Shown here piece after piece: positions 5,055-23,813 of a stretch of DNA of 25,444 nucleotides; within the stretch, counting starts at the first letter, position 1, and every line of letters starts with the position of its first letter. The stretch is from an uncultured archaeon (lineage in GTDB: Archaea > Iainarchaeota > Iainarchaeia > Iainarchaeales > CSSED10-239), in contig CAZPGO010000008.1 in the NCBI GenBank assembly GCA_964586355.1, positions 1 to 25,444 on the forward strand, read 5' to 3'. Made by a program: the position numbers and the translations under genes. Below the pieces are notes generated by a model. The model saw nothing but the letters and a program-made list of their open reading frames with translations, was not told where the DNA came from and did not search any database.

Positions 5055-5068
5055 ATTTTTCCCTAATT

Positions 5069-8000: not shown

Positions 8001-11000
8001 CTACAATTATTATAAATAACTAACCTTTGTTTTTTAGGAATTAATTGTGAAAAATCAAATTCAACTTTTGGAACTTCAATACAGTTTTCTGGAATGGTGC
8101 TTATTGGTAAAGTTACCGTTACTGGAACATCTTTTACATAAGTATAATCGTCAACAGTGTCGTCAACAGATTTAGCATAAACACTTAATTTATAAGTTCC
8201 TAAAACAGAACCACCTTGAATATTAACATTTGCTGCAGAATTTTTATTAACTGTAATCTCATTACTGTTTAGAACAGTTATTCCATATTCAGCATCAAAC
8301 TTTATCAAAGAATCATCCGCACAATTGTTCTTTACCTGTAAAGTTGTTGCAGGGCATCCAAACTGATTTGTATAGGTTGTGTTGTTTGTTGGATAATCTA
8401 AAAAGTTTTGATAATTTGTTTGATTCATCATCTGGCTATAACCTAGACTAGGATATTGCATGGTGTTAAAAGTGCTTCCTGAATATGGCACACCAATATT
8501 TCCACCAAAAGCTTGTTGATTATAACCCATGGTTGTTGGATCATAGGACATTGGATTATATCCAAAGTTATTAGAGTACATGTTGCCCATAAACTGGTTC
8601 ATAGCACAATACATTGCTTGAACTGTTCCTTTTGGAAGCTCTAGACAACTAGCGTAGTTGTTCATAACTATGTTAGAAATATGATCTACAGAGATATTAT
8701 CAAAACCATTAATATTTGCTCTTTGTGTTCTAAATATAATTTTTGGTTCTGCACTCATTGTTTTTAAAGTAGATTTTGGTTTAAATCTAATTTTTAAAGT
8801 TACTGATTCATTTGCTTTAAGAGTTGGTAAAATCTGTACTCCGTCATTATCAACCAAATCATATTCATTGTTTAAAGCAACAATACTAAAGTCTCCATAT
8901 TTTTTATTTTTAGACCAGTATAGATCTGCAAATATTCTTCCTAAAGAAACAGGTGCGCTATCAACACTACAATCGTTTTTTAAGGTTATAGAATATTCAG
9001 CAACTTCTTCAGCAGTTACTAATGATAAACTGTTTTCTATTGGATCTATGGTTAAACAGTTAACATTATTTACACTATTTCCAAAAGTGACTCTTACAGT
9101 TACTGGTATTTTTACAACCCATTCTTTTGAAAGTGAATTTTCTTGAATATATAACAACAGTTCTCCTGTTATTACTTTTTGAGTCATTAACTCAATACCA
9201 GTTTCATTTAATTTTGCTTCAACATCTAAAACTATTTTTTGAGCTGGGTCTAATAAAACTGTGTTTACATATGCAGAAATATCTATAAAATCATCATCAA
9301 GGCTAGACTCTATTTTGGAAATATATAGTGGTAAAATAGTGTTATTCATTAAAGAGATTTGATATTTTTCAGAATAGGTTTTTGAAATATCTAATTGTAT
9401 ATCTAAAGATTCTGGGGTGATATTTAATATTTGATCTGTTACTTTGTTTGTTAAAGTAACACTCTTATATCCTTGTTTTTTAATAACAAAATCAATAGTA
9501 GATCCTAGATTTACTGAAGGCAAAACATAAGCAAATATCCCCTCATTATCTGTTTTTCCAGTATCAATTACAGAACCGTTCTTTAAAATTAAAACATCTG
9601 CATTAACAACTGGGCTTTGATCTTCATGTGTTGCTGATATTAAAATATTGTTTGGAACATATGGAACTAAGACTGTTGGTATTTGTTCACCAATTAATAT
9701 CTTAGACTCTCTTACATCAAACAAAATATTTTTTGTAAAAACTACTTCTCCATTTGAGATTACAGAAAATATTAAAGTATCTGATTGATCATTTAATATT
9801 GAAAGATCAATATTTCCTGAAATATAATCATTTACTAAAAGATTACCAATTTCTATATAGTCAAAATCATTTGTTCCATTTATTACTTGTGCACCAACAC
9901 TTTCTATAAAGTAGTTTGTTAACTTTATTGTTTTTCCTTGAGCAATACTAGTAATGCTTAAAGAAGCATCTTGTAGATTTGTTTTGTCTACATTTAATCT
10001 AAATTGTAGTTGATAATCTGTATTTTCTTTTGCTGTAAATTTATCAATAATATTTCTATTTATTTTTGTACTTTTATCAAACACTGAAAAGCTATAACAC
10101 ACACCATTATCACAAAAATTAGAGGAACCTACATATATTGGTTGTTGTTTAGCATAAGCATAAAGTGATTGTTTTGAAGATGTGCTTACTGCTGTTTCTA
10201 AAACAGAATCTAATGGAAATCTTGAAACAGAATTACCGGTAATAAATTCTGCTCTATAAAAAACATTTTGATTTTGAGAAGCAATATCTCTAATAACTAT
10301 TTCAGCATCTATTAAGTAGCTTCCTAAAAGTGGTCTATTTATAGTTACATTAAACCATTTTGCATCCTTTTTTGTAAAGCTTAAAAGATCTGTTCCTTCT
10401 CCAAGGCATGGCGTATATGTGCTAGATCCATTTATTTGTGTTCCTGCATAGTTTATTTGTTTTATATAACTAAAATCTTCTTCTAACAAATAAGTTTTAG
10501 AACCACAACCTTCTCCAGCTCCTGTTCTTATGTGTGCTACTGCTTTAGAATAATCTCTATCAACATTTAAAACAAATCTTGCTATTACACTTTGTCCTGG
10601 GCTTATGCTTGTTACCATTTCTCCAGAAGTTGTGTAAAATCCTAAAAACTCTATATTGGAGGATGTTGTTGTTCTTGGTAATCTTATAGTTTCGTTAAGA
10701 ATAGTGTTTGCTTCTACATTATAGTGTTTTGTTATAAATTGTCTATCAAAATTATTTATTACAAAATACACAGATTTATCTGATCTTATTCTAATAATAG
10801 CATTTCCTTCTGAGTCTGTGTTTGTTTCTTTTTCAACCATCTCTTTATTTGTAGAAACTTCATAAACTTTTACATCTGTTGATACTGGACTATCTTGTGT
10901 ATCTAAGATTTTAAGATTATAAGTTCCTTCACCAATATCTAAAATAACACTTTCTTCATTAATCTCTCTTTCTTTAATGGTAAAATTTGAAATAGATCTT

Positions 11001-12469
11001 CCAGTAAATGGTCCAGAAACTACTTCAATATAATATGTATTTTCTGGATTTAGGTTATTAAAAATATGTTTACCATAAATATCTGTTATTCCTGTTTTTA
11101 TTAAAGAATTACTAATAGCATCCATTATTTTTACAGTTGCATCTTCTATTGGTGCTTTGTCTTTGTCTATGATACTTACTATTAATGTATTTTGATTAGT
11201 TGAATCTACACTCTTTAACTTAATCTCTTGAGCAGTTTCTCCAACTGAAACCGTTCTTTGAGAGATTATATAATTATCATTATCAAAATTTGCTAAATAT
11301 GAAGAACTTTCTTTTACTCCAAATCTTACTATTCCATCATTATCTGTTTGTTTTACTTCTTGTATGCTTATTCCTTTTTTTAGAGTTACTTTTACATTTG
11401 GTATTACTTGATTTGTTTCTTGATCAATTGTCTTTAAAATAATAAAACCAACAACATCTTTTCTTAACTCTATTTCAAAATCATTAGATTGGTTTGGCAA
11501 GATTTTTTTTGTGGCTAATAGATTTGTATTATACTCAGTATCTCTAATAGATCCATATAATCCATTTGGATCTGAAACAAATATTTTGTATGTTCTATTT
11601 ACTAGTAAAACATCATTAGAAACATAAATACCATTATCATTTGTAACACCAATATCTGATTCTTGATCTGTTACTACATCTATTATTCTTATATTTAAAT
11701 TTGGGATCCCTAATTTAGAGTCTTTATCTTTTACTAATACACTTAAAGTTCCTTTATCTTGAGATGGAGAACTTAAGTATATGTCTTCTACTTCTTCTGT
11801 TACTTCTAAAGAATAAGGATCAAATTCTCTATTCTCTATATCTACTATTAATTGACCACAATTTACTGGAATATCTGATAACAATAATTCTCCAGAACTT
11901 ACTGTTTCAGAAGCAAAAAAATCTGAATCACTACAACTTATATTAACATGTAAAAGATCATTAATTATTGTTCCATTAGGTGATTTAAAATATATTTTTT
12001 TTGTTAAAAACTGGGTTTTTTGTTCTAGATAAATAGAATTGTTTTTTTCAGTTATTGCTTGTTCTGTAATATTGTTTGCAAATTTATATTTTGAGTCATC
12101 TATTTTTAAAATATGTTCTGCTTTTTTTTCAAAATTTGTTAGTTCAAAGATACCTTGGCTATTTGTTACAGCAACAATTGAAACATTATCAAATAATATA
12201 TCTATTTCTTCTGAGCTAATTGTATTTCCAGTAGAATCTTTAAAAACAAAGTTTATGGAGTCTGCTGGTGTTGATACTACTGGAATTAACAAATAAACTA
12301 TTAAAAAAATTATTGCAAGAAGTAATACTAAAAAAATAGCAAAAGTTGGTATGCCTTTTTTTTCTAAAGGATCTATAATCTTATACAGATTAATTCCTTT
12401 TTCTTCTAGAGTGTCAAGCATCTCAAAATATTTGTCTTCTAATTTATAATATAGATTTTTTAAGCCCAT
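5069..12469 (-). CDS. Giant membrane-anchored surface protein, paralogue 2 (2466 aa); beta-sandwich repeat adhesin-like
   Basis: Track ORF. N-terminus MGLKNLYYKLEDKYFEMLDTLEEKGINLYKIIDPLEKKG|IPTFAIFLVLLLAIIFLIVYLLI. Repeated beta-sandwich signatures, e.g. LIVSIIDKDKAPIEDATVKIMD...TGITDIYGKHIF and GFIILKTIDQETNQVIPNVKVTL...TDNDGIVRF. CARDB-like strands carrying Cys (TLKNDCSVDSAPV, VKNNCADDS, IYNNCRDQGY). SD-like AGGA ends 7 nt before the ATG. Confidence 0.9.
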   Translation of the reverse strand: MGLKNLYYKLEDKYFEMLDTLEEKGINLYKIIDPLEKKGIPTFAIFLVLLLAIIFLIVYLLIPVVSTPADSINFVFKDSTGNTISSEEIDILFDNVSIVAVTNSQGIFELTNFEKKAEHILKIDDSKYKFANNITEQAITEKNNSIYLEQKTQFLTKKIYFKSPNGTIINDLLHVNISCSDSDFFASETVSSGELLLSDIPVNCGQLIVDIENREFDPYSLEVTEEVEDIYLSSPSQDKGTLSVLVKDKDSKLGIPNLNIRIIDVVTDQESDIGVTNDNGIYVSNDVLLVNRTYKIFVSDPNGLYGSIRDTEYNTNLLATKKILPNQSNDFEIELRKDVVGFIILKTIDQETNQVIPNVKVTLKKGISIQEVKQTDNDGIVRFGVKESSSYLANFDNDNYIISQRTVSVGETAQEIKLKSVDSTNQNTLIVSIIDKDKAPIEDATVKIMDAISNSLIKTGITDIYGKHIFNNLNPENTYYIEVVSGPFTGRSISNFTIKEREINEESVILDIGEGTYNLKILDTQDSPVSTDVKVYEVSTNKEMVEKETNTDSEGNAIIRIRSDKSVYFVINNFDRQFITKHYNVEANTILNETIRLPRTTTSSNIEFLGFYTTSGEMVTSISPGQSVIARFVLNVDRDYSKAVAHIRTGAGEGCGSKTYLLEEDFSYIKQINYAGTQINGSSTYTPCLGEGTDLLSFTKKDAKWFNVTINRPLLGSYLIDAEIVIRDIASQNQNVFYRAEFITGNSVSRFPLDSVLETAVSTSSKQSLYAYAKQQPIYVGSSNFCDNGVCYSFSVFDKSTKINRNIIDKFTAKENTDYQLQFRLNVDKTNLQDASLSITSIAQGKTIKLTNYFIESVGAQVINGTNDFDYIEIGNLLVNDYISGNIDLSILNDQSDTLIFSVISNGEVVFTKNILFDVRESKILIGEQIPTVLVPYVPNNILISATHEDQSPVVNADVLILKNGSVIDTGKTDNEGIFAYVLPSVNLGSTIDFVIKKQGYKSVTLTNKVTDQILNITPESLDIQLDISKTYSEKYQISLMNNTILPLYISKIESSLDDDFIDISAYVNTVLLDPAQKIVLDVEAKLNETGIELMTQKVITGELLLYIQENSLSKEWVVKIPVTVRVTFGNSVNNVNCLTIDPIENSLSLVTAEEVAEYSITLKNDCSVDSAPVSLGRIFADLYWSKNKKYGDFSIVALNNEYDLVDNDGVQILPTLKANESVTLKIRFKPKSTLKTMSAEPKIIFRTQRANINGFDNISVDHISNIVMNNYASCLELPKGTVQAMYCAMNQFMGNMYSNNFGYNPMSYDPTTMGYNQQAFGGNIGVPYSGSTFNTMQYPSLGYSQMMNQTNYQNFLDYPTNNTTYTNQFGCPATTLQVKNNCADDSLIKFDAEYGITVLNSNEITVNKNSAANVNIQGGSVLGTYKLSVYAKSVDDTVDDYTYVKDVPVTVTLPISTIPENCIEVPKVEFDFSQLIPKKQRLVIYNNCRDQGYILNNLKIKDIAEIEESGVSYFSIGENIRDLKPIPSTMTKDGKTIEVWSLDVLRKPDIETIKVITKHRTVAERVTATRTGSMQIFESIVKTPILSIGYTNPRMQLQELDKELRFIDNLQWLGLADETGTPFTEQLKDPKKVSEDSKDINTQDQDKFPAVEKGKEPTKGNLDKEALDKFNEETKVTPRELDESLVRYERYNDESGITIKIILNKELFDQEEDFTSFSGTDLKACFTGNISDFKDLGLSDITTKSYIDQQISKKLNLGIFNFGEIISSITFPQKGKYMICISRPYNKLTEDESSIRINDIYFMDQDKSLVKKFFIRNPISWTLGVLKETIYDDIYFSLTTEVGGFASKKTSYLDTSDYTITSDPINQEDGECYGPQAFNGVQGYTSLDKYKEYGFDRLLFTWDLEDITYNTCDYGKYYCDQDQLRVSMSKKVDLLKDSTKYTELIVSNKEDSLNKINFKLQEGTKKLEKDNSTHMIINLQNEIDSKFTESVLAENYHLLLKGIIFDAVPEKLQEFAIITINANLMNDNNFSEITKELFTLEDAQTKGQEKAYYDYELNDKNYYSFSVSVFLDYAYTKINNMVLEDDKDIDLYLQDFLKSMDIYYGVSLDKFIVNTKVYGDLTKDSETHKIFTSGNWGSTLNKFTLKENSIIREITKPQTVLVEFDLDSIESDNVNYTFSDLDRLNDYLNPHNSNQTFKENIFFKTPINALHYNYINNSISLPYVSINTNLLPSGTKKADVYVNYENWNEIQKGYIYTYMVDPQDNYVTSSFADIRPLQLTSTVPLNYNLEYYLSGNYISPTTPIDWFRKTESNKEITSVRKTSIDDVSENGYRLLELNGQKTLFKTTLFVLNNINVSEQNSEQLRIVSTAKLLNNLGVSENFSVTDYYKYIYLIPSNLSTNNNFNLNTSLIKYLIDGKKEIENTESDTENYDSIINNKICFNFEEINGSKIFKLWYNPSYKYNKE
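8357..8602 (-). other. N/Q/Y/M/G-rich low-complexity (prion-like composition) insert in giant 2
   Basis: aa 1290-1371: MNQFMGNMYSNNFGYNPMSYDPTTMGYNQQAFGGNIGVPYSGSTFNTMQYPSLGYSQMMNQTNYQNFLDYPTNNTTYTNQFG. Bracketed by Cys (YCA... / ...GCP). Only two acidic residues (two Asp) and no basic residues across about 80 aa. Confidence 0.7.
10670..12265 (-). repeat. Giant 2: array of diverged beta-sandwich repeats (protein level)
   Basis: aa ~68-600; same recurrent pattern (four or more clear units quoted in the CDS evidence). Boundaries are approximate. Confidence 0.6.
12275..12361 (-). other. Giant 2: KKG-IPTF plus hydrophobic helix (signal-anchor or class III signal-like site)
   Basis: K37-K38-G39 | I-P-T-F-A-I-F-L-V-L-L-L-A-I-I-F-L-I-V-Y-L-L-I-P-V-V (to aa 65). 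Confidence 0.5.
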
Positions 12470-12650: not shown

Positions 12651-14468
12651 TTAATTAACCTCTTTTGCCACACAACTATTTTGAGGACTAGTCAAAATAT
12701 CTGGTACCCCTTTATAATCTAAACAGATCCAATTATCTGTATTATTTGGCTCAGTTAAATAGCCATTAGTAATATAGCCATTAATAGACTCTTTTGTAAA
12801 ATAGCCTGTGTTTGAATCTGTGCTTAAACTAGCAAATCCATTTGTTGGAGGAAAAGTATACTTTGTAAAAGAATCCCTTAACTCTACCCAAATAAAGGTT
12901 TCTTGTGAAGGCAAGGTTCTATAACGATTATCTGTTTCTTTAAATTTTAAAAGAATATTAATATTTTCTAATTCTGAACAACTAAAATTAATAGACTGGC
13001 CAGTAGTTCCAACATAATCTTCACCTATTGAAATAGCAAATGGCCAAGTATTACCAGAAATGCTGTCTAACTCTCTAAAAGTTCTTGCTCTTTGAAGCTC
13101 AGTATTATAAAATATGCCAAAACCTCCTGCTAAAGTATTAGGGGTATCTATTAAAAATTCTTGTGAAGAAAAAGCATTTAAAGAAACTGATTGTGCACTT
13201 TGTTGCTCAATAATTTGTTTTGTTCTTGTTAGTGAAGGTGTTGTAGAGATCTGCAAAATATTAACATCTCCAAACCCATCTAAACCATCACCAGAGAGCA
13301 TCTCTAGACCATTATTAAAAACTATTGTTTCGGTATCCAGGGCAGATCTTTCCATTAAATTTAACTTAGTTGTTCTTTCAATTAATTTATTAAAAATTGC
13401 TGAACTATCTGTAGCTAAATTATCTAAATTATAGTTCATACTTACAGAAGGTGTATAGTTGGAAAAACCGCCAGAAGGGGTCACTGGCCTAATCTCAACG
13501 GCTTGTTCACTAGGACTTAAACAAGATGCACTAAAACCATCAGCAGAAACAGTTTTAAAAAGATCTTTTCTATAATCACAAGACTGAGGCTCACAAACCC
13601 CAAGTCTTGCCTGCTCTAAGGTGTTATGAATTTTTGGATTAAATAGCCCTACATCAGAAGCACCATTACTATTAAAATAACCAGGATTATCACTAATCTC
13701 AGCGTCAGTACTATGAGCAATTCTTCTTGCTGTTCTAAGTGCTTGAAATCCTCTCCAAGGCATATATATTTTATAAACTTGTCTTCCAAATATCGGTCTT
13801 TGAATAACATCTTGACTTTTATGTCTTAAAACATTTATTTTTGGTAATAGCTCATAGTTTTCATCAGAGAGTTGAGTTGCATCAATTGTTATATAAAAAG
13901 ATCCAGTACATTCTTCTGGATTATCATTACTACAATTAACAACATCTATTTTATTTCCTCCATCTAAAAACATTTGATTAACAATATCTTTATATCTTTC
14001 ACCATTAGATTCCAAACTTCCAGAAGTTGTGTCTTCTTCTAATTGCTCTAAAACTAGTTTATACCCTGGAGGTTCAACAGTATATTGAAGTCTTAATAAT
14101 AAAGCAGTTGCAAAATATCCAGCAAAGTTCATAGAAAAAAATTGTTTGTTTGCCATTATTTGTACAAAATCTGACCAATTGGTATCAAGCTCACTTCTAT
14201 CTAAAATAATTCTTTGATCTTGACTAGAATTTGCTGTTTCCCAATTAAATCTTAGAGCAACAATAAAACTATCAAAAGCATCTGCTCTTGCTAGATCTCC
14301 AATAGTAATAAGATCTGACATTGATGATTGATTGGCTATTACTGATAAATAAGTTTCTTCTGTTTTTATCATATTAAATAATAAAACTAAAGTTACAGAT
14401 ATTAATAATAAGGAGACTAATGCTGTAAATAAAGTAAAACCTTTTTTATTATTTATTTCTAAAAACAT
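12651..14468 (-). CDS. Type IV pilin-like protein with class III (prepilin-type) signal; large minor-pilin/tip-pilin-like (605 aa)
   Basis: Track ORF. N-terminus MFLEINNKKG|FTLFTALVSLLLISVTLVLLFNMIK is a short basic leader, a Gly at the predicted cleavage site and a ~21-aa hydrophobic helix. No Glu at +5, as in archaeal pilins and in bacterial GspK/PilX-type minor pilins. It is followed by a ~570-aa domain with several Cys pairs. The function call comes from the N-terminal motif only. Confidence 0.7.
   Translation of the reverse strand: MFLEINNKKGFTLFTALVSLLLISVTLVLLFNMIKTEETYLSVIANQSSMSDLITIGDLARADAFDSFIVALRFNWETANSSQDQRIILDRSELDTNWSDFVQIMANKQFFSMNFAGYFATALLLRLQYTVEPPGYKLVLEQLEEDTTSGSLESNGERYKDIVNQMFLDGGNKIDVVNCSNDNPEECTGSFYITIDATQLSDENYELLPKINVLRHKSQDVIQRPIFGRQVYKIYMPWRGFQALRTARRIAHSTDAEISDNPGYFNSNGASDVGLFNPKIHNTLEQARLGVCEPQSCDYRKDLFKTVSADGFSASCLSPSEQAVEIRPVTPSGGFSNYTPSVSMNYNLDNLATDSSAIFNKLIERTTKLNLMERSALDTETIVFNNGLEMLSGDGLDGFGDVNILQISTTPSLTRTKQIIEQQSAQSVSLNAFSSQEFLIDTPNTLAGGFGIFYNTELQRARTFRELDSISGNTWPFAISIGEDYVGTTGQSINFSCSELENINILLKFKETDNRYRTLPSQETFIWVELRDSFTKYTFPPTNGFASLSTDSNTGYFTKESINGYITNGYLTEPNNTDNWICLDYKGVPDILTSPQNSCVAKEVN
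14376..14447 (-). other. Pilin-like protein: class III signal peptide cleavage motif plus hydrophobic helix
   Basis: K8-K9-G10 | F-T-L-F-T-A-L-V-S-L-L-L-I-S-V-T-L-V-L-L-F (to aa 31). Confidence 0.6.
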
Positions 14469-14520: not shown

Positions 14521-17500
14521 TTAAGCGTATTTTGGAGAATTATAGGAAGTTACAGCAGAATACTGTGGATAACCACTAGAAGGAATAAGAATTGAGTGTA
14601 TTGATCTTCCTGCTGAAACATAACTATCTAAATATTGATAACTGGATTTATCTACTGATTGATGTAAAAACAGATCTCTTCCTTGTTGATCTTTTCCAAC
14701 ATATAAAACAATATGGCTTGGTTGAGAATATTTACTGCCAGGTATATTAATATTAATCAAAACACCAGGAACAAGATGTTCTTTATAACTTTCAGTATTC
14801 TGACCAGCTCTCCAAACAACTTTATTTGAAGAACCCATAAACCAAGAATGATTAAGTATATAACTTAGATTATATATTTTTTTTGCAGCCTCTACAGAAA
14901 ATCTAGAACACATACGTTCTCCCCAGCTTTCTGAAAAATCAGCACATTGTCCTGGAAAACTACACCCAGTATATTTTTGTATAAGATCTTTTTTTTGTAA
15001 ATATCCTTCTTTTTGAATTTCTTCTAGATCTAAACTACTTATACTTTCATTATCTAAATCCAAACCACCATTCACACTAGATAAATTATTTGCTTCTCTT
15101 TGAGCCCTTTCTATTTCTTCAGCCAGCATTTCCTCTACCATCTCTTCAGTACTTATTTCTGATTTATCATATTCAACAGCACCTAGGTTTGTTAAAGACC
15201 TTTTTATGTTTTCTTCAGTTATTTTGTTATTAGCTTTTTTATAAACCACATTATCTGCTTTATCATTAATAGGAGACTCTAAAGAAATTTTTAAAATATA
15301 ACTTTCTTTTCCTGCTGAGTTTTTTGTTCTATATACTAAAATATAATAAAATTTATTTTTAGAAAAACTTGTAATATTGTCACTATCAGTTGATTGAACA
15401 ATAGAATGTTCAAGATTGCCAATCTCTCCATCCTCCTTTAAAGCAGAAAGACCATACATATTACCAACAATACCACAAGCAATACCTTTTGCCATTCCAC
15501 CCCACTTTCTAAATCCAAATTTCCAGTTTACTTTTGAGGATTTAAGATTGCTTGTTTTTTGAATAACATCATCAATATTTTTAGTAAGATCATCTGAGAT
15601 CGAAACAACTTTTTGACCATTAACAGTTGTTGTTCCTGTTTTTATAGCATCGTCTACTCCATTTCTAGCATTTTTCAAAGTATTTTGAGCATCTAAAAGA
15701 TCTGCTTTTGTTTTAGTTAATTTGTCTAAATTTGTATTTGCGGATTTGTTTCTAGTAGCATAATTTTCTATCTTTGAAATTTCTTTATCTAATTTAGCTA
15801 TATCATCACTAACTGTTTTAAGAGCATCATCTAATTGTGTTAAGCCCTTTTGAGCATCATCTACAGATATTGCTCTGGTTACTGTGGATGCAACATCGCC
15901 TGCTTCAGCAGCTATTGATGTATGACCGCTTTTTTGTAATAATCTATCAACTAATCTTTTTACATCTGGGGTTCCTCTCCCAGCATTTTGTGGATTAGAA
16001 AAATATGCTGGATTTCCAACACTTGGATCTGCTGCAGGATTATTAAATGTTTTTGATAATATTTTTGCAAGATCATAGCTATCATCAGCAGAAAGAGCCA
16101 TAAAATCATCTACATTATTAACTTGTCCCATAATTCTTGCTAAATCATCAGCATCAGAAGGATCTGGTTGGAAAATGTTTTTTAAACCTCCACTTTCTCC
16201 TTTTAATGATTCTATCCAGCCACCTTTTACTTGGCTTTTTAATGCTGCTTCTGAAAGAGAATAACTTGGGTTAATTGCTGGAGTATAAAGTGTAGAACCA
16301 CCAGAAGTTCCAGGAATAGTAATATTTGTTGTTGGAATTGCTGAGATACCAGAAGTTGGCAAATCAAAATTACTTATTATTTTTGAAGAACCAGCAGCCA
16401 TATAAGGAGATGTTGTAGATCTTAATATTTTTGTGTATCCTGCTTGATCAGCACCAGCAGAAGCAACACCAAGAACAGATCCGCCTTTTAAGGCATTCAT
16501 AGACTCTAAGAAAGGATCTTCTTCCTCTTCTATAGCACCTTCTATTTGATCAATAGTTAATTCTTGAGCTCCATTAGTCCCTAGACCAAAAAGATCTCCA
16601 ATATCAGACATAACACCCTCGACCCATTCAAAAGCTGTTGAAAAACCTTTTCCAAGTCCTGCAAGACCAGTTTTTAAAGCATTTAATAAACCCCAATCAT
16701 TACCAGTTACTTGAGAAGCATAATAAACACCAGCAGGCATACCACAAGTAAATATTCCACAATCTAAAACAATATTTTTTAGAGCTAAAGGTATAGTCAT
16801 ACCTCCACTTACTATTGCTAAAAGAGTATCCCCTGCTGCTGAACACATAGAACAAGATTTAAAACAACTTCCAAAAAATTTAAAAGTATTATCTCTTGCC
16901 TTTGATTTTGCCACAGAACTTGCAGCACTACTTATCTCAAGATCTGGACACCAATCCTTTATTACAAAGAAATTTTGTGCTTTAAAATTTTTTTCTATAA
17001 ACTTTTTTAAAATCTCACATTGTGTTTCAGTATCTCTTGGAGAATAAGTATCATCCCAATCAACCAAAGCAAAAAACTCAAAAGTATCTAATTCTGATCC
17101 TGACACTGAATTATTCTGAACTTCTTTATTAATTGTTTCAAATAATTCCAAAGGAGTTAATGCAAAAGAAATTAGATCTAACTCTAAGGTCTTTGCTCTT
17201 AGACCCATGGCACTAGACTCTCTAAATTTACTAGTTGCTGTTATCTTTAACTTATTACTAATTTCTGAAGTTAAGCTTTCTAAAGAAGGAACAACACAAA
17301 CATTAAAGTCCACTGTTTTTTCTGGCTGTAAGGATACTGATAAAGCATCATGTTCTTTTCCTTGATAGTTATAAGTAACATTAAGAGTACTCTCTTCATT
17401 ATTAACTAAAACAGTTTCATTAATAGTTGAACTTAGTTCTAAAGTTTTACAAACTTTTTCTGGTTCTAATCTTATGTTGTTTACTTTATCTTTTGCAGTT

Positions 17501-20500
17501 AGCTCTAAAGTACCACTAACACTTTCTTTAAAAGATAATAACAAAAGATAATCTTTATTTTCTGAGATACAAACATCTGCAAGATCTTGATTCATTATTC
17601 CTTGTATGACTTTTGAAATGTTTCCAACAACTTTTTCATCAAAGATTACTTTGTTTTCTCCATCAACAGCACCATAACCACTATTAATTAATATCTCTGT
17701 AATTTCTGGAGTTTTTTGTAAAGAGTCTTGTTTTGTTCTAAAATAGATCTTTGCTATAGCATCTTCTTTTTCAGAAATATTACCAGTAAATAAATTTATA
17801 ATATTAAACTGATTTGATCTCTCTAGATTAAAAGCATACCTTTTAGCATCATTAAAAACATCTGTTGCAATCTTTTCTCCAAACTCTTTTTTACCAGTAA
17901 TCATTGTAAGCCAAGTTCCATAGTTGGAGGCTTGTTTAAGTTCTTTGTCATGTGGTAAAAACAAAATAAAGTTTTCTGCTGATTTACTACAACTTTCTGG
18001 TTTTTCCATTTCTTCTATCATTATGTAAATAGTTGTTCTTTCTGGTAAGATCAATTCATGGTTTGCAGCAACAAACCCATCAATTGTTACTTTGTATTTT
18101 CCACAACCTCTTAGTTTTCCATCATATAATAATCTCCCACCGGTAATAGAGACATCACTAGGGGTCATAAAACCTGAGTTTTCTAAAACCAGATGTCTGT
18201 TTATCTTACTAAATTTTTTATTAGTACTTTGGTCTTTTATTAAAAGATCTCTTAAAAGATCAACATTAATAGCATCATTTTGTAAATACAAATAAAATTC
18301 TGTGGTTTTTGTGTTCTTTAAAATATCAGAGATCTCACAATAACCATTGTTATATGCTTGAGGAGCACAAGAACTATTTTGTGTTTGATTTTTTATCTGT
18401 GAAGAATCTGTAATAATTCTTGCTTGTAGATCTTGAGCTCTTTTTAAGATTAAGTTAGCAGCACCAACAGCATCACAAAAACCTGTGTCTCCATCACAGG
18501 TTGTTGAAACTATTGGAAAGTTAAGATTTATATTTCTAGCATCTTCTCCACTAAGACTTTCACAAATAGGAACAGATTGAGAATAAGTTTGCTCACTATC
18601 TCTTATAGTCTCTTGATCTTGAACAATAACTTCTGTTGTGACCAATATTGATTCAGAGCTTACTGTTGCTCCAGACTGTGTTCTTCCAACAAATCTTATT
18701 GGTTTTTTTAGTCTTGGAAACTCATATTGATTAGCTGTTAATTTTAAAACATAGTTTGCAGATGCACCCATTGGCAAAATCTGAGAATAAGTACTTGGGT
18801 AAAACTCTACTGCTGTTGCTCCAAAAGCATCAGCATAAAGATTACCTTTCTTATCTATGTCTGTAATCATTACTGGCTCAGAGCATTCGTTTGTGATGGT
18901 AATAGATCTTTCTTTAGGTTTATTAATCTCTAAGGCATAATCCAAACTTTTTTGATTTATTTTTATACAAGAGGGGGGAGAGATCCAAAGGTATGTTTGA
19001 AAAGAAGTTTCCACTCTGTTTTTAATGCCTGGAGCATAAGCACTAACTTTATAATAAAGATCATCAATAGTTGCAAGATTTATTTTTCCTTTATACTGTA
19101 TAACAACATTTACAGTTTCATCAGGTTCCAAAACCTCCACACTTGGAGGATAAATAGAGTCTTGAACATTTGCTGAAATTCTGTTTGTATGATTGCTTAT
19201 TTGTATATCTCTTAGTGTAATATTACCTGTGTTTTTTAAAACAAACACAGCATGAGTCTCAGCAGGAAACTCATCTAGATGCTGTGCTAGTGGTATTGCT
19301 TGGGTTTGTGGTGTTATTTGCATAGATTTGGAAACATCCACAATTTCAACATTAAGTTTTGTTTTCTCAAACTCATAGAACTCATTATCCCAAAAAATAT
19401 TAAAAGCATGTTTCTTTAACATCTTTGTATCTTCTTTATTTTTCACAACAATTTCATATTCTAGTTCCTCTCCACTAGCTAAAGAAAAGCCAGGAACACT
19501 AACATCTATATTTTCCTTAGAAGGAATAACTCCTTCTCTTTTTACCTTTGGGGTAGCAACAATTGGTTTTTCACAATTGTTTTTTATAGAAAGAGTTATG
19601 GTATTTTCAGATCCTGCTTGAAAGCCTACATAAGAATCTAATAGCTCTGGTTTGATTAATAAACAATCAGATTTAACAGCCCCTTTTAAAACCAAAACAT
19701 CTATTTTCTTTGCTATCTGTTTATTGCCTATACGACCATAGATTACCAAAACCGCTTTTGCACTATTAAACTGAAGTTTAGCATCTACTGTTGCAATCAT
19801 TCTGGAATTTATGGAACCAGAACTATTTATTTCATTTGGAGTTTCTAGATTTAATGAAAGGGTATCAACATTATCTATATATCTTATTTCAGATCTTATA
19901 TCTGTTATTGGTTGAGAGTATTTATTAATAAGAGTAAAGTCTACAAAACCTGTGCTAGAAGTTTGTCCAAGATTTAGTGTGATTTTATCTGGTGCACCTA
20001 AAAGTGTTTGATCTGCAATAATAATCTCTCTTGTTTCTGGTTGATAACCATGTGAAGAGATTTCAAAAATTATCTTATTATTGTTGAATTTTTGATCAAC
20101 CATATATTTTCCAAAAAGACCATTTTTAGGACTTGGTAGAATCACACCGAGATTTTCTTTTTGCAAATTAGTTATTTTTATTTTTGCATTTTCTATAGGG
20201 TCATTAGTTTCAGAATCAGAAATGTCAAAAGTAATTGGAGTATCATAGTCTGCAATCTCTAAAGGATTCATAATTACATTCATTTTCTTTTGTGAATAAA
20301 CATCAAAACTTTTTTTGGTTTCTATCTTTGTAGTATCGTCAGAAAGAACATTTTCTATATATGTAGATCCAAGATCTTTTGCATAGAAATAAGTATATAC
20401 CTTTACAGGTGTTCCAGCAGTTACATTTATTCCAGATTCTGCGATCTCTGTTTGTATAAATGTTTCATAATTAACATTTGTTGGAAAATTTAAGGCACCA

Positions 20501-23088
20501 CTAGATGTTGTTACAAGAGTTAAGATTGGATTTGTTGATGTTGTTTGAGAGGTTAACAAAAGAGTTTTATTTTTTAAAGTAAAGATAGTACTCTCTAATG
20601 CATAAAGATTTCCTTTTACTGCAAAAAAATCATCTGTGTATTCATTTGTTTCACTATCAATAAACTTATGACTTACACAAACATCTCCAACACAATCAGC
20701 AGGTTTATCAAAAATATCTATTTCTATTTTTTTTGTGTTTGCATATAGTCCTGCCTTAACAACTGAAGATCTATTATTTAAAAGATCTCCGTCTTGAGGG
20801 TCTCTTAAAACATTAAGATCAAAGTTAGCCCAAGCTCTATAATTTACTATGGCTTTATTTATACTATCGTCAATTGCTTTAACCTTAACTTTTATTTGCT
20901 TATTTCCTAATTCATTTAATGACTCCCATTCTAAATTCAACCATTTATTTTGCTGATCACTAGAACCAATATTTAAAAGATCAATTTCTTGTGCTCCTGG
21001 TCCAGGATATGGAGTATAGGTTAAAGAATATCTAAAATTTGTGGCATCTGCTTTAAAACCTGTTATTCCATAAGACATGTTCTCTGAATCTGTTTCAAAA
21101 TCATCACCTACTCTTATATGTGCTCCCCCGCTTTTAGTATCTTTTGAAAAAAGAATATCAAACACTAAGTAGTAATCAACGCCTGTTGAGATAAAGCTTG
21201 TCTTATTTCCACTTAGATCTTCAACTCCAACAAAATCTATTATTGGATAACCTTCTACTGCTTCTTTTTGAATTTCTGTAAGATCTAATGTTTTCACACC
21301 TTCAAAATCATCGCCAACCACTAAAGGCATGGTTGTCTTTTTTCCATCTTTGTCTGTGTACTCTAGGATTAGATCTTTATATCCAAAGGTATCAAACTCA
21401 ACTGTGGTTCCATCAACATTACCATCATATAAGATTTCTCCTGTTTTAGATTTTACTAACAAATGACCATCTGTTAAAGGAAACCCTTCTTTTTCTAAAT
21501 CTAGTTTTACTATCTTAGATCTATAGATTAACAAAACCACTTTATTATCAACTGTTGGGCTTATGGTAACACTATCTGATGCCATAACCTCTCTATAATA
21601 TCCTCTAACCTCATATGTTTGATTTGTTCTTAATGGTACAGAGAGATAACCAGTAAGATCTAGCTCTAAATTTTCTATTCCTGTGTTAAGTAAAGCACCT
21701 TCTTTTATAACTAAAATTTCTATTTCGGTATCAGGTAAAGGATTTGAATATTCATCAAAAACATGTATGCCTAGGGGTCTACTGTTATTACTAGTTATTT
21801 TTTCTAAATGTAATTGTATTTGTGAAGAATCTAAATTAACTTTTTGCTGTTCACAAAAATAGTTTTCATAACAAGCTGAAACTATATAATTTAGATTAGA
21901 ATCAAGGTTATCAAATTTCACATAACCATCATAACTAGTATAATTTCCATCTATTAAGGAATTATTAGAATTATATAAATTTACTTTTGCATTTTCTATT
22001 GGTAATAATTGATCTTTATCAATAACCTGAACAGATAAACTATTTCCACCTAGTTTCAAAACCACAGGAAAAGTTTCTTCTGGTTTTATTATTCTTAAAG
22101 TTTTATCCTCTTCTTCTGAATCATATTTTTTATAGTTATCAGCAGTAACAACTATTCTTATGGTCTTTCCTGAACTTACCTTAAATAATGCTTTTCCTAA
22201 AACAGATCTTGAAACATCAAGTAACTTATTATCAAAAGTGTCGTAGATTTGTATAGTTGCATCATCAACATTTTCTCCTTGGTTATTTACAACAGTAATT
22301 GTTACATTAGATTCTTTTCCTTCAAAAGACGCCATATCAAAATCTAGCATATGCTCTTTAGTTTCTGTTTCTTGAGTTATCTGATAATCAAACACAGAAG
22401 ACTGATAACCATCCGCTTCTAAAGTTATCTGAAATCTGGTGTTAAGTGGAGCATCAAACACTAAATCAAAGTTTCCATTTGAAATTACTATATTTTCTAT
22501 ATCAGATCCTGAGGACTCATATCTTATTGTTCCTTTTACTTCTGGAATTATTTTATTTGTAGAACTATCTATTGGTCTTACTATTAATTGACCAAAAGAG
22601 GTAGGCTTAGTAAACACAAAATTTATTTCTTCTTTTTTACTTGTTGGAATAAATGTTTTATTTATTGAATCATACTCATCTTTACTAACTATTAGCGTAT
22701 AAGACTTACCAAGGGATAAAGGGACTTTAAGTTTTTGACCACTATTGATTGCATTAGATACTGTGTAGACATCAACACCATCAGCATCCCTTATAGATAA
22801 AAATACTCCATCTATCTGTTGAGAGCTTGAGTCTCTAAAGTTTGCTGTTAGCTCTATTTTTCCTAAACCAAAAATTAATAAAAACAAAATAATTAATATT
22901 ATTATTAAAATAGCTCCAATTAAAGCAAAAGGAGGAATACCTTTTTTCTCTAAAAAGTGGTTTAGTTTATTTAGAGGAATTCCTTTTTTAGTTAGCCAAT
23001 CACTAAAACCATTATATCCTTTTTCCAAAGAATTATAGATCTTTGAAAAAATGTTTTTGTCTTTTTTTTTTGTGTTTTCTGATCTCAT
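14521..23088 (-). CDS. Giant membrane-anchored surface protein, paralogue 1 (2855 aa) with C-terminal NlpC/P60-type hydrolase module
   Basis: Track ORF. N-terminus ...IYNSLEKGYNGFSDWLTKKGIPLNKLNHFLEKKG|IPPFALIGAILIIILIILFLLIF. Beta-sandwich repeats, e.g. NVTITVVNNQGENVDDATIQIYD and LSVQVIDKDQLLPIENAKVNLYN...SYDGYVKFDNL. CARDB-like strands (VLKNTGNITLRDIQIS, SIKNNCEKPIVA, TITNECSEPVMI). C-terminal GQCADF...SHIVLYVG...FLHQS motif set. Confidence 0.9.
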   Translation of the reverse strand: MRSENTKKKDKNIFSKIYNSLEKGYNGFSDWLTKKGIPLNKLNHFLEKKGIPPFALIGAILIIILIILFLLIFGLGKIELTANFRDSSSQQIDGVFLSIRDADGVDVYTVSNAINSGQKLKVPLSLGKSYTLIVSKDEYDSINKTFIPTSKKEEINFVFTKPTSFGQLIVRPIDSSTNKIIPEVKGTIRYESSGSDIENIVISNGNFDLVFDAPLNTRFQITLEADGYQSSVFDYQITQETETKEHMLDFDMASFEGKESNVTITVVNNQGENVDDATIQIYDTFDNKLLDVSRSVLGKALFKVSSGKTIRIVVTADNYKKYDSEEEDKTLRIIKPEETFPVVLKLGGNSLSVQVIDKDQLLPIENAKVNLYNSNNSLIDGNYTSYDGYVKFDNLDSNLNYIVSACYENYFCEQQKVNLDSSQIQLHLEKITSNNSRPLGIHVFDEYSNPLPDTEIEILVIKEGALLNTGIENLELDLTGYLSVPLRTNQTYEVRGYYREVMASDSVTISPTVDNKVVLLIYRSKIVKLDLEKEGFPLTDGHLLVKSKTGEILYDGNVDGTTVEFDTFGYKDLILEYTDKDGKKTTMPLVVGDDFEGVKTLDLTEIQKEAVEGYPIIDFVGVEDLSGNKTSFISTGVDYYLVFDILFSKDTKSGGAHIRVGDDFETDSENMSYGITGFKADATNFRYSLTYTPYPGPGAQEIDLLNIGSSDQQNKWLNLEWESLNELGNKQIKVKVKAIDDSINKAIVNYRAWANFDLNVLRDPQDGDLLNNRSSVVKAGLYANTKKIEIDIFDKPADCVGDVCVSHKFIDSETNEYTDDFFAVKGNLYALESTIFTLKNKTLLLTSQTTSTNPILTLVTTSSGALNFPTNVNYETFIQTEIAESGINVTAGTPVKVYTYFYAKDLGSTYIENVLSDDTTKIETKKSFDVYSQKKMNVIMNPLEIADYDTPITFDISDSETNDPIENAKIKITNLQKENLGVILPSPKNGLFGKYMVDQKFNNNKIIFEISSHGYQPETREIIIADQTLLGAPDKITLNLGQTSSTGFVDFTLINKYSQPITDIRSEIRYIDNVDTLSLNLETPNEINSSGSINSRMIATVDAKLQFNSAKAVLVIYGRIGNKQIAKKIDVLVLKGAVKSDCLLIKPELLDSYVGFQAGSENTITLSIKNNCEKPIVATPKVKREGVIPSKENIDVSVPGFSLASGEELEYEIVVKNKEDTKMLKKHAFNIFWDNEFYEFEKTKLNVEIVDVSKSMQITPQTQAIPLAQHLDEFPAETHAVFVLKNTGNITLRDIQISNHTNRISANVQDSIYPPSVEVLEPDETVNVVIQYKGKINLATIDDLYYKVSAYAPGIKNRVETSFQTYLWISPPSCIKINQKSLDYALEINKPKERSITITNECSEPVMITDIDKKGNLYADAFGATAVEFYPSTYSQILPMGASANYVLKLTANQYEFPRLKKPIRFVGRTQSGATVSSESILVTTEVIVQDQETIRDSEQTYSQSVPICESLSGEDARNINLNFPIVSTTCDGDTGFCDAVGAANLILKRAQDLQARIITDSSQIKNQTQNSSCAPQAYNNGYCEISDILKNTKTTEFYLYLQNDAINVDLLRDLLIKDQSTNKKFSKINRHLVLENSGFMTPSDVSITGGRLLYDGKLRGCGKYKVTIDGFVAANHELILPERTTIYIMIEEMEKPESCSKSAENFILFLPHDKELKQASNYGTWLTMITGKKEFGEKIATDVFNDAKRYAFNLERSNQFNIINLFTGNISEKEDAIAKIYFRTKQDSLQKTPEITEILINSGYGAVDGENKVIFDEKVVGNISKVIQGIMNQDLADVCISENKDYLLLLSFKESVSGTLELTAKDKVNNIRLEPEKVCKTLELSSTINETVLVNNEESTLNVTYNYQGKEHDALSVSLQPEKTVDFNVCVVPSLESLTSEISNKLKITATSKFRESSAMGLRAKTLELDLISFALTPLELFETINKEVQNNSVSGSELDTFEFFALVDWDDTYSPRDTETQCEILKKFIEKNFKAQNFFVIKDWCPDLEISSAASSVAKSKARDNTFKFFGSCFKSCSMCSAAGDTLLAIVSGGMTIPLALKNIVLDCGIFTCGMPAGVYYASQVTGNDWGLLNALKTGLAGLGKGFSTAFEWVEGVMSDIGDLFGLGTNGAQELTIDQIEGAIEEEEDPFLESMNALKGGSVLGVASAGADQAGYTKILRSTTSPYMAAGSSKIISNFDLPTSGISAIPTTNITIPGTSGGSTLYTPAINPSYSLSEAALKSQVKGGWIESLKGESGGLKNIFQPDPSDADDLARIMGQVNNVDDFMALSADDSYDLAKILSKTFNNPAADPSVGNPAYFSNPQNAGRGTPDVKRLVDRLLQKSGHTSIAAEAGDVASTVTRAISVDDAQKGLTQLDDALKTVSDDIAKLDKEISKIENYATRNKSANTNLDKLTKTKADLLDAQNTLKNARNGVDDAIKTGTTTVNGQKVVSISDDLTKNIDDVIQKTSNLKSSKVNWKFGFRKWGGMAKGIACGIVGNMYGLSALKEDGEIGNLEHSIVQSTDSDNITSFSKNKFYYILVYRTKNSAGKESYILKISLESPINDKADNVVYKKANNKITEENIKRSLTNLGAVEYDKSEISTEEMVEEMLAEEIERAQREANNLSSVNGGLDLDNESISSLDLEEIQKEGYLQKKDLIQKYTGCSFPGQCADFSESWGERMCSRFSVEAAKKIYNLSYILNHSWFMGSSNKVVWRAGQNTESYKEHLVPGVLININIPGSKYSQPSHIVLYVGKDQQGRDLFLHQSVDKSSYQYLDSYVSAGRSIHSILIPSSGYPQYSAVTSYNSPKYA
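14599..14991 (-). other. NlpC/P60-CHAP superfamily (papain-fold) hydrolase-like domain at the C-terminus of giant 1
   Basis: Candidate triad: PGQC(2715)ADFSESW (codon 14944-14946), SH(2792)IVLYVGKDQQG (14713-14715) and FLH(2809)QS (14662-14664). The Cys-to-His spacing of 77 aa and the H-x-x-x-Y-x-G...x-H-x-S layout match the NlpC/P60 Cys-His-His pattern. Confidence 0.6.
15439..15504 (-). other. Second hydrophobic Gly/Ala-rich helix in giant 1 (TM or membrane-inserting candidate)
   Basis: W2529-GGMAKGIACGIVGNMYGLSAL-2550, about 165 aa upstream of the hydrolase Cys. Confidence 0.45.
15640..15875 (-). other. Predicted coiled coil in giant 1
   Basis: aa ~2405-2483: DDAQKGLTQLDDALKTVSDDIAKLDKEISKIENYATRNKSANTNLDKLTKTKADLLDAQNTLKNARNGVDDAIKTG. 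Heptad-like spacing of L/I/V, charged, and no Pro or Gly until the end. Confidence 0.5.
16570..16885 (-). other. Cys-cluster plus Gly-rich hydrophobic/amphipathic module in giant 1
   Basis: aa ~2069-2173: FFGSC(2075)FKSC(2079)SMC(2082)SAAGDTLLAIVSGGMTIPLALKNIVLDCGIFTCGMPAGVYYASQV...WGLLNALKTGLAGLGKGFSTAFEWVEGVMSDIGDLFGLGTNG. The CX3CX2C motif lies at 16843-16866. Confidence 0.5.
21260..22850 (-). repeat. Giant 1: array of diverged carboxypeptidase-regulatory-like/CARDB-like beta-sandwich repeats (protein level, not a DNA repeat)
   Basis: aa ~80-610. Recurrent pattern: hydrophobic-x-V-x-V-x-D, then P-[IL]-x-x-A/T-x-[IV], then a D-G/Y-G turn, then x-Y-x-[IV]-x-V. Boundaries are approximate. 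Confidence 0.6.
22861..22947 (-). other. Giant 1: KKG-IPPF plus hydrophobic helix (signal-anchor or class III signal-like site)
   Basis: K48-K49-G50 | I-P-P-F-A-L-I-G-A-I-L-I-I-I-L-I-I-L-F-L-L-I-F-G-L-G (to aa 76). Confidence 0.5.
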
Positions 23089-23258: not shown

Positions 23259-23813
23259 TTAAAAAGAAACTTTAACATTTTCTTTTTCTTTTGAAGTTGC
23301 TTCTAAAAACTCTTGTTTTTGGAAACTAAACATTTTTGCAAACAGGTTTGTTGGAAACATTTCTGTTTTGTTGTTATAATCCATCACTGTATCATTATAG
23401 AATTGTCTAGAATATGCAATCTTGTTTTCAATACCTGATAACTCTTCTTGAAGCATTAAAAAGTTTTGACTTGCTTTTAGGTCTGGATAATTTTCTACAA
23501 CAACATTTAATAGTCCGCCAATTTCTTTAGACATCTTTTCATTAGCTTTCATGGTTTCTTTTATGTCTTTTGTTTGCATTGCTTGTGTTCTTAATTCTGT
23601 TATTTTTGTTAAAGTTACTTGTTCATGTTTTACATAACCTTTTACAGTTTCAATTAAGTTTGGAACAAGATCATATCTTTTCTTTAACTGAACATCTATT
23701 TGACTCCAAGCATTTCTTACTTTATTTCTTGCTGCAATTAGACCGTTGTAAATTAAAAAGCTAACAATGAATATGATTGCTAAAATAATCAGTAATATGT
23801 ATAGTATAGCCAT
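23259..23813 (-). CDS. lemA: LemA family membrane protein
   Basis: 184 aa. N-terminal TM helix followed by YNGLIAARNKVRNAWSQIDVQLKKRYDLVPNLIETVKGYVKHEQ, the hallmark LemA motif block. SD-like GGGGG sits 9 nt upstream of the ATG. Confidence 0.9.
   Translation of the reverse strand: MAILYILLIILAIIFIVSFLIYNGLIAARNKVRNAWSQIDVQLKKRYDLVPNLIETVKGYVKHEQVTLTKITELRTQAMQTKDIKETMKANEKMSKEIGGLLNVVVENYPDLKASQNFLMLQEELSGIENKIAYSRQFYNDTVMDYNNKTEMFPTNLFAKMFSFQKQEFLEATSKEKENVKVSF

Follow-up and report, generated by a model that had tools for sequence, protein, structure and literature searches.

The closest precedent for the system described here is provided by the large extracellular lytic-transglycosylase (SLT) proteins of Pacearchaeota and Woesearchaeota (fam00969), which reach ~3,000 amino acids (aa) and have been proposed to bind and degrade bacterial walls (Castelle et al. 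2021, PMC8204110); giant SLT-bearing proteins with this proposed role are known from other DPANN lineages (PMC8204110, PMC10936187). A second described group, the SPEARE proteins of Nanohaloarchaeota, consists of giant, membrane-anchored proteins rich in immunoglobulin-like (Ig) domains, 8,900-9,400 aa in length, that carry a VirB4/TraG-like ATPase domain and are proposed to interact with the host; no NlpC/P60 domain has been described in them (PMC10266531). Here we analyze a 25,444-nucleotide stretch of DNA (the window; assembly GCA_964586355.1, contig CAZPGO010000008.1, G+C ~29%) from an uncultured archaeon of the Iainarchaeota, in which the minus strand carries all large genes in one tight cluster that encodes three giant proteins and a pilin-like protein. 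Our subject is giant 1, which appears to carry a divergent cysteine hydrolase at the far end of an N-terminally anchored surface protein. Giant 1 resembles the SLT giants in that both are giant surface proteins of DPANN archaea bearing a bacterial-type cell-wall hydrolase, but its enzyme is predicted to be a cysteine peptidase or amidase, whereas theirs is a transglycosylase acting on glycan strands; it also differs in its Iainarchaeota-like origin, in its context of a pilin-like gene and two further giants, and in that its enzyme is optional and C-terminal. Like the SPEARE proteins it is giant, membrane-anchored and Ig-rich, and no sequence relationship to them was detected in an exhaustive phmmer search. 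We found no paper in the literature that links DPANN archaea with NlpC/P60 or CHAP domains.

A predicted cysteine hydrolase at the end of giant 1

An earlier note, made from this DNA alone, had proposed that giant 1 ends in an NlpC/P60-CHAP-type hydrolase. Single-sequence searches with the tail or the C-terminal domain (NCBIfam, PHROGs, PDB phmmer) returned nothing significant, and a word-indexed homologue search with the tail returned no relatives. The exhaustive phmmer search, which covered 1.84 billion representatives, recovered 15 relatives, 12 of them small proteins of 126-226 aa whose match is limited to the last ~130 residues, and three that share more of the tail. When a profile of the hydrolase family was compared by hhalign with E. 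coli MepS/MepH/NlpC, a significant match was obtained (probability 94.5%, E 7.9e-8, 101 columns), as opposed to 0.07% for the control, an unrelated alignment of pilin-like proteins. A PDB search with the profile of alignment A2, a 15-sequence alignment of the domain, gave only two matches, the type VI secretion system (T6SS) amidase Tae2 (6win) and a C40 NlpC/P60 peptidase (6biq), both weak (E 0.2-0.9) and aligned on the strand that bears the histidine. The AlphaFold model of aa 2700-2855 has a mean predicted local distance difference test (pLDDT) score of 87 and a predicted template modelling (pTM) score of 0.85, and Foldseek matched it to the CHAP domains of the lysins LysGH15 and LysK as the top PDB entries, followed by LytE, a staphylococcal CHAP domain and an Anabaena NlpC/P60 endopeptidase, with probabilities up to 0.97-0.99; its viral matches are named 'hydrolase', 'CHAP domain' or 'NLPC/P60' proteins. 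The significant hhalign match and the modelled fold thus bear out the proposal, and we conclude from profile and model evidence that the C-terminal domain truly belongs to the non-permuted NlpC/P60-CHAP superfamily, although it is very divergent. Existing Pfam models score it below their thresholds, and it has no Pfam model of its own. The DPANN-restricted branch of this superfamily that it represents is missed by current domain libraries.

Both alignment and model point to C2727, H2792 and H2809 as the catalytic triad of an intact-looking hydrolase. In the hhalign register, C2727 coincides with the cysteine of the MepS DCSGF motif, H2792 with HVGIY and H2809 with the histidine of (F/V)HA; in the model (its own numbering) C2727 is the first residue of helix 28-40, strand 93-100 begins with H2792, and H2809 falls within strand 106-112, as expected of an alpha+beta papain-like core. 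The earlier note had described a Cys-His-His layout in which C2715 served as nucleophile. Its two histidines stand, in register with MepS; its cysteine does not, as C2715 occurs only in the window and two related loci (L010, L024), and the cysteine conserved throughout the family is C2727. C2709 and C2715 are confined to the nearest relatives and may form a disulfide. C2727, which lies in the context ERMCSRF (family consensus 'YCARYARLAA'), is near-invariant in alignments A1 and A2 and is present in 15/15 cluster-linked domains covering the position; H2792 is invariant in both alignments and in all 17 cluster-linked domains. The third triad site is more variable among these 17 domains (H 7, Q 4, D 5, E 1). 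Since the cysteine and the first histidine are conserved, and since H, Q, D or E at the third site is typical of the orienting residue of papain-like enzymes, the cluster-linked domains are probably active enzymes, and the conservation pattern argues for this activity. It follows that C2727A is the right active-site mutant and that C2715A would have been the wrong control. Gln occupies the third site (MILQQNG) in the hydrolase of the orthologous giant of L020, likewise in three other loci.

The residue order also bears on the LRAT-type lipid acyltransferases, which the earlier note had raised as an alternative. The LRAT and YaeF families are circularly permuted, with the two histidines preceding the cysteine, which comes last. 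The order C2727, H2792, H2809 excludes this permuted branch, and the LRAT family (PF04970) gave no Pfam match at E <= 1.

Compared with the NlpC/P60 murein endopeptidases (PF00877, MEROPS C40; MepS/Spr, MepH, NlpC, LytE), the giant 1 domain has its catalytic Cys, His and His in register and in the same non-permuted order, the cysteine at the N-terminus of a helix and the histidines on consecutive strands of the model, and B. subtilis LytE and the Anabaena endopeptidase are among its structural matches. It departs from them in its helix motif ([YM]C[AS]R[YF]A as opposed to DCSGF), in the spacing between the histidines (17 residues as compared to 12 in E. coli MepS, H145 and H157 of alignment A7), in the restriction of the family to DPANN archaea, and in its fusion to the end of an archaeal surface protein of ~2,700 residues. 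Its best Foldseek matches are CHAP enzymes (PF05257; LysK and LysGH15, 4olk and 4csh, probability 0.8-0.97), with template modelling (TM) scores of only ~0.4, and one sub-branch of the family carries a CHAP-like 'QG[KND]C..F' motif. An hhalign comparison with a single CHAP amidase, E. coli Gss, was not significant (probability 0.3%) and nonetheless placed the catalytic residues in register. Tae2 is the best PDB profile match of the family.

The distribution of the family shows it to be a DPANN-restricted, archaeal branch. All named relatives belong to DPANN archaea (Micrarchaeia, Diapherotrites/Iainarchaeum, Nanoarchaeota or simply 'archaeon') and every one is annotated as hypothetical; the genes around them, among them L7Ae-NusA-S12-S7-EF2, histone and Hef genes, are archaeal. 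The closest genome match to the domain of the window is a Candidatus Iainarchaeum metagenome-assembled genome (MAG), at 63% identity, and several homologues of the pilin-like protein come from Candidatus Iainarchaeum too, which points to an Iainarchaeota-like source for the window.

The N-terminal anchor at aa 54-72 is the sole strong hydrophobic segment of giant 1 by Kyte-Doolittle (KD) analysis. A hydrophobic helix lies ~35-55 residues from the N-terminus in all three giants (KD 3.4-3.6), and we infer that they are type-II-anchored surface proteins with a short cytoplasmic N-terminus and one transmembrane helix, which in giant 1 would leave ~2,780 aa outside. Because the only strong anchor is N-terminal, the last ~790 residues probably form the distal end, and the conserved cysteine pairs of the tail fit with an extracellular position. 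Pfam detects only Ig/prealbumin-like domains in giant 1, e.g. CarboxypepD_reg and DUF7507. The open reading frame (ORF) list and translation bear out a protein of 2,855 aa, and an identical protein is present on seven contigs from several samples, so giant 1 is not an assembly artefact. The position that the earlier note had proposed for the hydrolase, at the tip of a giant surface protein with an N-terminal anchor, is thus supported, and the protein is archaeal.

The tip enzyme across related clusters

The order giant 1 / pilin-like / giant 2 / giant 3 is repeated in divergent genomes, which allowed the fate of the hydrolase to be followed. The A2 profile was used to scan the sequence preceding the pilin-like gene in 19 loci from metagenomes, to which earlier loci were added for a total of 23; two loci with too little upstream sequence were set aside, as were duplicates (L029 repeats the L012 contig, and the same ORF appears in L021 and L031), leaving 20 distinct clusters, window included. 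In 15/20 of these the pilin-like gene is immediately preceded by the hydrolase domain, which, where the upstream sequence suffices, is in frame with the giant in all but one genome. In this genome, represented by two independent assemblies (L021 ~9314-9886; L031 ~3323-3895), the domain is found just past the stop codon of giant 1 in another frame, no ATG precedes the catalytic cysteine, and gene callers give only a 63-aa ORF; a pseudogene, a non-canonical start, programmed frameshifting and a real frameshift are all conceivable at this junction. Giant 1 comes to a clean end shortly after the small beta module of its tail in two clusters (L023, L030), where the pilin-like gene follows. Different enzymes stand directly before the pilin-like gene in two more, namely a secreted protein of 668 aa whose C-terminus bears a Peptidase_M23 domain (L037 1855-3873; E 5e-26) and a 780-aa Peptidase_M6 (InhA-like) protein (L027 1513-3876), and in the last (L032) a transposase-like ORF precedes it. 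From this survey, with 15 of the 20 clusters carrying the hydrolase, two lacking it, one carrying M23 and one M6, we conclude that the hydrolase is an optional, exchangeable tip of a conserved four-to-five-gene cluster. What emerges from the survey is a multi-gene surface apparatus that is conserved while its enzymatic tip can be exchanged.

A variable C-terminal enzyme on a long surface protein also recalls polymorphic toxin systems. We rejected this assignment, as the C-terminal domain, where present, is always of the same family, and the next gene encodes the conserved 605-aa pilin-like protein and not a small immunity protein.

The survey bears as well on whether the domain acts on the cell's own surface, by processing or releasing giant 1, the pilin-like protein or the other giants, or by remodelling the envelope during assembly. 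Tight linkage to the pilin-like gene and two giants speaks for this explanation, as do the flexible acidic and S/G/P-rich linkers, which would permit action in cis, and the persistence of the apparatus without the domain in some lineages. However, archaeal prepilins are processed by membrane aspartyl peptidases and not by papain-like enzymes, and one would expect a maturation enzyme that is essential neither to be optional nor to give way to a separate secreted M23 or M6 protein. We judge action on the own surface to be improbable.

The target of the hydrolase

A cell-envelope target is plausible for an enzyme in this position. We consider it probable, though well short of certain, that giant 1 is an anchored fibre of a DPANN archaeon whose tip cysteine hydrolase cuts the wall of a neighbouring cell, most likely its bacterial peptidoglycan. 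Such a fibre would carry, in distal order, cysteine-stapled helices, a flexible linker, a helical hairpin, a beta module, an acidic linker and the hydrolase, and would probably act together with the pilin-like protein and the two other anchored giants. It would bind a neighbouring cell, where the tethered hydrolase would cut the peptide stems or cross-links of the wall, and the local opening could lead to close contact, to nutrient or DNA uptake, or to killing. The archaeon would need no immunity protein, because it has no murein; no immunity gene is present at the cluster.

Four lines of evidence favor bacterial peptidoglycan as the most likely substrate. First, the relatives that can be detected by sequence or structure are all murein hydrolases. 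Second, the M23 protein that stands before the pilin-like gene in L037 belongs to a murein endopeptidase family. Third, one small homologue (P0014; L005 7317-8838, archaeal MAG GCA_964603295.1) lies two genes upstream of a gene for a 240-aa SLT protein with an N-terminal signal. Finally, the same role has been proposed for giant SLT-bearing proteins of other DPANN archaea. A Cys-rich 81-aa ORF lies between the P0014 and SLT genes.

The target may instead be archaeal or otherwise not murein, such as the peptide links of pseudomurein, S-layer or surface proteins, or isopeptide bonds of a partner archaeon. The papain-like NlpC/P60-CHAP fold is known with many amide-bond specificities, the giant 1 family is very divergent from the bacterial murein enzymes (13 bits with PF00877 and no Pfam model of its own), an M6 protease takes the place of giant 1 in one cluster (L027), and the DPANN hosts known from culture are archaea (PMC10266531, PMC5498576). 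On the other side, Peptidase_C71, the pseudomurein endoisopeptidase family of PeiW and PeiP, gave no Pfam match at E <= 1 with the domain and 15 family members, and the same M23, SLT and best-match evidence that favors bacterial peptidoglycan speaks against a non-murein target. We regard such a target as unlikely, yet as an alternative that deserves to be taken seriously.

Several observations weigh against the reading in which the tip cuts bacterial peptidoglycan. The match to Pfam NLPC_P60 (PF00877) is confined to the histidine region and reaches only 13.1-13.2 bits (E ~0.09), below the gathering threshold of 23 bits, and only 3/15 family members match this model at all (best E 0.0072); CHAP (PF05257) gave no Pfam match at E <= 1 with the domain or the 15 family members; and the E values of the Foldseek matches are only ~1e-2, with TM-scores of 0.4-0.6. 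No wall-binding module (LysM, SH3b, PG_binding) was detected in giant 1 by Pfam, and the orthologous giants of L023 and L030 lack the hydrolase altogether. The partner is a further difficulty, as all experimentally established hosts of DPANN archaea, including those in culture, are archaea (PMC10266531, PMC5498576), and Iainarchaeota have been reported as possibly free-living (PMC10936187). The family, moreover, is not necessarily wall-directed and may use other amide substrates, because the small stand-alone homologues of two Micrarchaeia genomes (L007 8001-8438; L013 7001-7567) are without a signal sequence and occupy a conserved slot between genes for an NrdG-like radical SAM activase (of the anaerobic ribonucleotide reductase) and glutaredoxin/thioredoxin reductase; NrdD/NrdG, thioredoxin and glutaredoxin genes make up the neighbourhood. 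This context hints at a cytoplasmic amidase role for the Micrarchaeia branch, perhaps one related to thiol or redox chemistry.

A broader proposal, which we put forward only tentatively, is that Iainarchaeota-like DPANN archaea, often regarded as possibly free-living, may instead carry a dedicated contact-dependent wall-breaching apparatus, made of three anchored giants and a pilin-like protein, with which they attack or attach to bacteria. Its exchangeable tip would be a DPANN-specific NlpC/P60-like hydrolase or an M23 peptidase, or would be absent. If true, this would point to cross-domain episymbiosis or predation in which the type of enzyme reports the wall chemistry of the host. Because substrate specificity reports wall type, the tethered tip hydrolase offers a concrete, testable clue to the partners of Iainarchaeota-like cells.

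Tail segments and neighbouring genes

The coordinates of the tail segments, catalytic codons and neighbouring genes are collected in Table 1.

Table 1. Features of giant 1 and its gene cluster, with positions in the window.
Feature	Positions	Strand	Basis and remarks
Giant 1	14521..23088	-	2,855 aa, with stop codon; ORF list and translation
N-terminal membrane anchor of giant 1, aa 54-72 (FALIGAILIIILIILFLLI)	22873..22929	-	KD 19-residue mean 3.56
Cys/Gly-rich, moderately hydrophobic segment, aa 2066-2120	16729..16893	-	Orthologue tail alignments
Gly-rich amphipathic stretch ending in EEEED patch, aa 2121-2190	16519..16728	-	Sequence, composition; low-confidence helices
S/G/A/T/P-rich linker, aa 2200-2300	16189..16491	-	Predicted disordered; pLDDT 22-29, no secondary structure
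Small helical module, aa 2309-2349 (ALSADDSYDLAKIL motif)	16042..16164	-	pLDDT 82-89; conserved columns in orthologue tail alignment
Helical hairpin, aa 2409-2484	15637..15864	-	Heptad analysis and AlphaFold
Gly/Ala-rich helix, aa 2529-2550 (WGGMAKGIACGIVGNMYGLSAL)	15439..15504	-	Conserved; pLDDT ~28
Small beta-hairpin module, aa 2575-2610 (FYYILVYR...YILKISLE)	15259..15366	-	Strands aa 2582-2589 and 2595-2602
Acidic helical linker, aa 2643-2707	14968..15162	-	Composition; helices aa 2647-2672 and 2688-2707
Predicted NlpC/P60-CHAP-like cysteine hydrolase domain, aa 2709-2845	14554..14964	-	hhalign, AlphaFold, Foldseek, PDB profile
C2715 codon	14944..14946	-	Low-confidence N-terminal hairpin with C2709, pLDDT ~60
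C2727 codon, predicted nucleophile	14908..14910	-	N-terminus of helix aa 2727-2739; MepS DCSGF Cys in hhalign
H2792 codon, predicted catalytic His (SHIVLYVG)	14713..14715	-	Beta-strand start; HVGIY of MepS
H2809 codon, predicted third triad residue (FLHQ)	14662..14664	-	Next beta-strand; (F/V)HA His of MepS
LemA-family membrane protein	23259..23813	-	Directly upstream of giant 1; Pfam LemA E 6.5e-60
605-aa pilin-like protein	12651..14468	-	52 nt downstream of giant 1; class III (prepilin-type) signal KKG|FTLFTALVSLLL
Giant 2, 2,466 aa, N-terminally anchored, Ig-like domains	5069..12469	-	181 nt after pilin-like gene
Giant 3, at least 1,684 aa, N-terminally anchored, Ig/macroglobulin-like domains	1..5054	-	14 nt after giant 2; runs off left end

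Between the Ig-like domains and the hydrolase, the tail passes through a succession of segments, several of which had been listed in the earlier note, and the note's residue positions for C2075, C2079, C2082, C2715, H2792 and H2809 are correct. The EEEED patch (aa ~2186-2190), the S/G/A/P-rich linker (57 of the 100 residues of aa 2201-2300 are small or Pro), the heptad region, the Gly/Ala-rich segment and the acidic helix are all present by sequence and composition. The whole layout is kept in orthologues with just 24-33% identity, and because the same succession occurs in them, these features are not due to chance. The AlphaFold model of the entire tail is mostly of low confidence (mean pLDDT 58), and with it Foldseek retrieved only generic helical hairpins (ESCRT-III/Vipp1, Rad50, MacA) at E > 0.3.

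The earlier note had described two hydrophobic parts of the tail, had proposed a membrane-inserting segment, and had placed a coiled coil between the two parts; all three descriptions require adjustment. The CX3CX2C motif (C2075/C2079/C2082) is present at the start of the Cys-rich segment, but C2082 is not universal among orthologues, and the conserved pattern is C2075-x3-C2079 ... C2110-x3/4-C2115 (x4 in giant 1), which resembles a twin CX3C arrangement. Twin-CX3C proteins have disulfide-stapled helical hairpins. The segment is modelled as helical (pLDDT 30-64), and the placement of the cysteine pairs on two neighbouring predicted helices suggests such a hairpin here. Its KD maximum is borderline (1.65 in giant 1, 1.18-1.96 across orthologues), and in the orthologue comparison an Asp or Lys interrupts each of its hydrophobic stretches. 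A reading of CX3CX2C as a radical-SAM-like Fe-S motif was rejected, as the region is extracellular and the third cysteine is not conserved. The '~80-aa coiled coil' contains a genuine heptad region, but this consists of two segments separated by a break (aa 2411-2439, with 100% of a/d positions hydrophobic, and aa 2450-2482, with 80%), which AlphaFold models as two 36-residue helices (aa 2409-2444 and 2449-2484; pLDDT 80-93), so that a hairpin replaces the single coil; it is found in all orthologues aligned. The second hydrophobic helix likewise exists as a conserved Gly/Ala-rich segment, but its KD value of 1.13 (aa 2532-2550, 19-residue window) does not exceed the peaks of the upstream beta-rich part, and values of 0.8-1.24 in orthologues are too low for a transmembrane call.

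These properties bear on the possibility that the tail breaches membranes, its hydrophobic segments inserting into the membrane of the partner and its C-terminal domain acting as an LRAT-type lipid acyltransferase or phospholipase. The hydrophobicity of the Cys-rich segment rises to 1.8-2.0 in some orthologues, Gly-rich amphipathic stretches lie next to it, and by analogy phage tape-measure proteins, e.g. T5 Pb2, combine a coiled coil and hydrophobic segments with a muralytic domain. However, hydrophobicity is only 1.2-1.65 in other orthologues, with charged residues within each stretch, the second helix is at background KD, and the four conserved cysteines in two CX3C-type pairs fit a soluble, disulfide-stapled hairpin. 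The enzymatic half meets a further objection in the Cys-His-His order of the triad, which is not the permuted His-His-Cys, and in the lack of an LRAT match. We hold a membrane-breaching tail to be very improbable; membrane insertion by itself appears less likely than a disulfide-stapled hairpin. The earlier note had also found the topology of giant 1 puzzling, with two hydrophobic regions downstream of the anchor, and this puzzle would disappear if the tail segments are not transmembrane.

The tail also invites comparison with phage tape-measure proteins and tail lysins (T5 Pb2) and with the PrgK/TraG-type, VirB1-like hydrolases of Gram-positive conjugation, to which giant 1 is similar by analogy only. 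Tape-measure and PrgK-type proteins are long and extended, and they combine helical or coiled regions with hydrophobic stretches rich in Gly and with a murein hydrolase that is either terminal or embedded. Giant 1 differs from them in being anchored in the membrane of its own producer and not forming part of a virion or type IV secretion system. Outside the hydrolase domain, no homology to these phage or conjugation proteins was detected by PDB phmmer, exhaustive phmmer or Foldseek; a tape-measure model appears at rank 39 among the weak viral Foldseek matches.

Among the neighbouring genes, the pilin-like gene is better conserved than the giants. Its product is 40-59% identical in two orthologous clusters that were aligned (L010 1604-3427, L012 1816-3525), as compared to 24-33% for the giants, and its prepilin-type N-terminus is invariant (NKKGFTLFTALVSLLL). 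The family has 61 members, matched at 33-80% identity, one of which is named 'prepilin-type N-terminal cleavage/methylation domain-containing protein'. Beyond the N-terminal signal no known domain was identified in the 605-aa protein, which gives weak N_methyl and ComGF matches. The pilin-like protein may be the core component of the apparatus.

In the related loci read on their downstream side (L001-L004, L012, L020, L021, L022) giant 2 keeps its position, and giant 3, which is cut by the window, measures 1,659-1,945 aa on longer contigs. Giant 1 (aa 17-113) and giant 2 (aa 6-104) share 36% identity by BLASTP at their N-termini. A motif of ~50 residues is common to the two ('...KKGIP.. / LEKKGIP..'), and a short segment precedes the membrane anchor in each of the three giants (22800-23088, 12200-12469 and 4900-5054, all on the minus strand). 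The N-terminal motif of giants 1 and 2 could be a common targeting or assembly signal.

The LemA-family gene upstream of giant 1 is found in the same place in L020, the one related cluster noted with LemA. This locus lies on an 813-kb contig and encodes an orthologous giant 1 of 3,116 aa (601-9951), in which an extra repeat-rich coiled segment precedes the helical hairpin. At the other end of the window (24644-25444, minus strand), a TTG-initiated ORF given as 123 aa belongs to a Laminin_G_3 protein (concanavalin-like lectin) of 366 aa, of which it forms the C-terminal part and which runs off the right end (compare L001 919-2019); another Laminin_G_3 protein lies near the small hydrolase homologue in L014.

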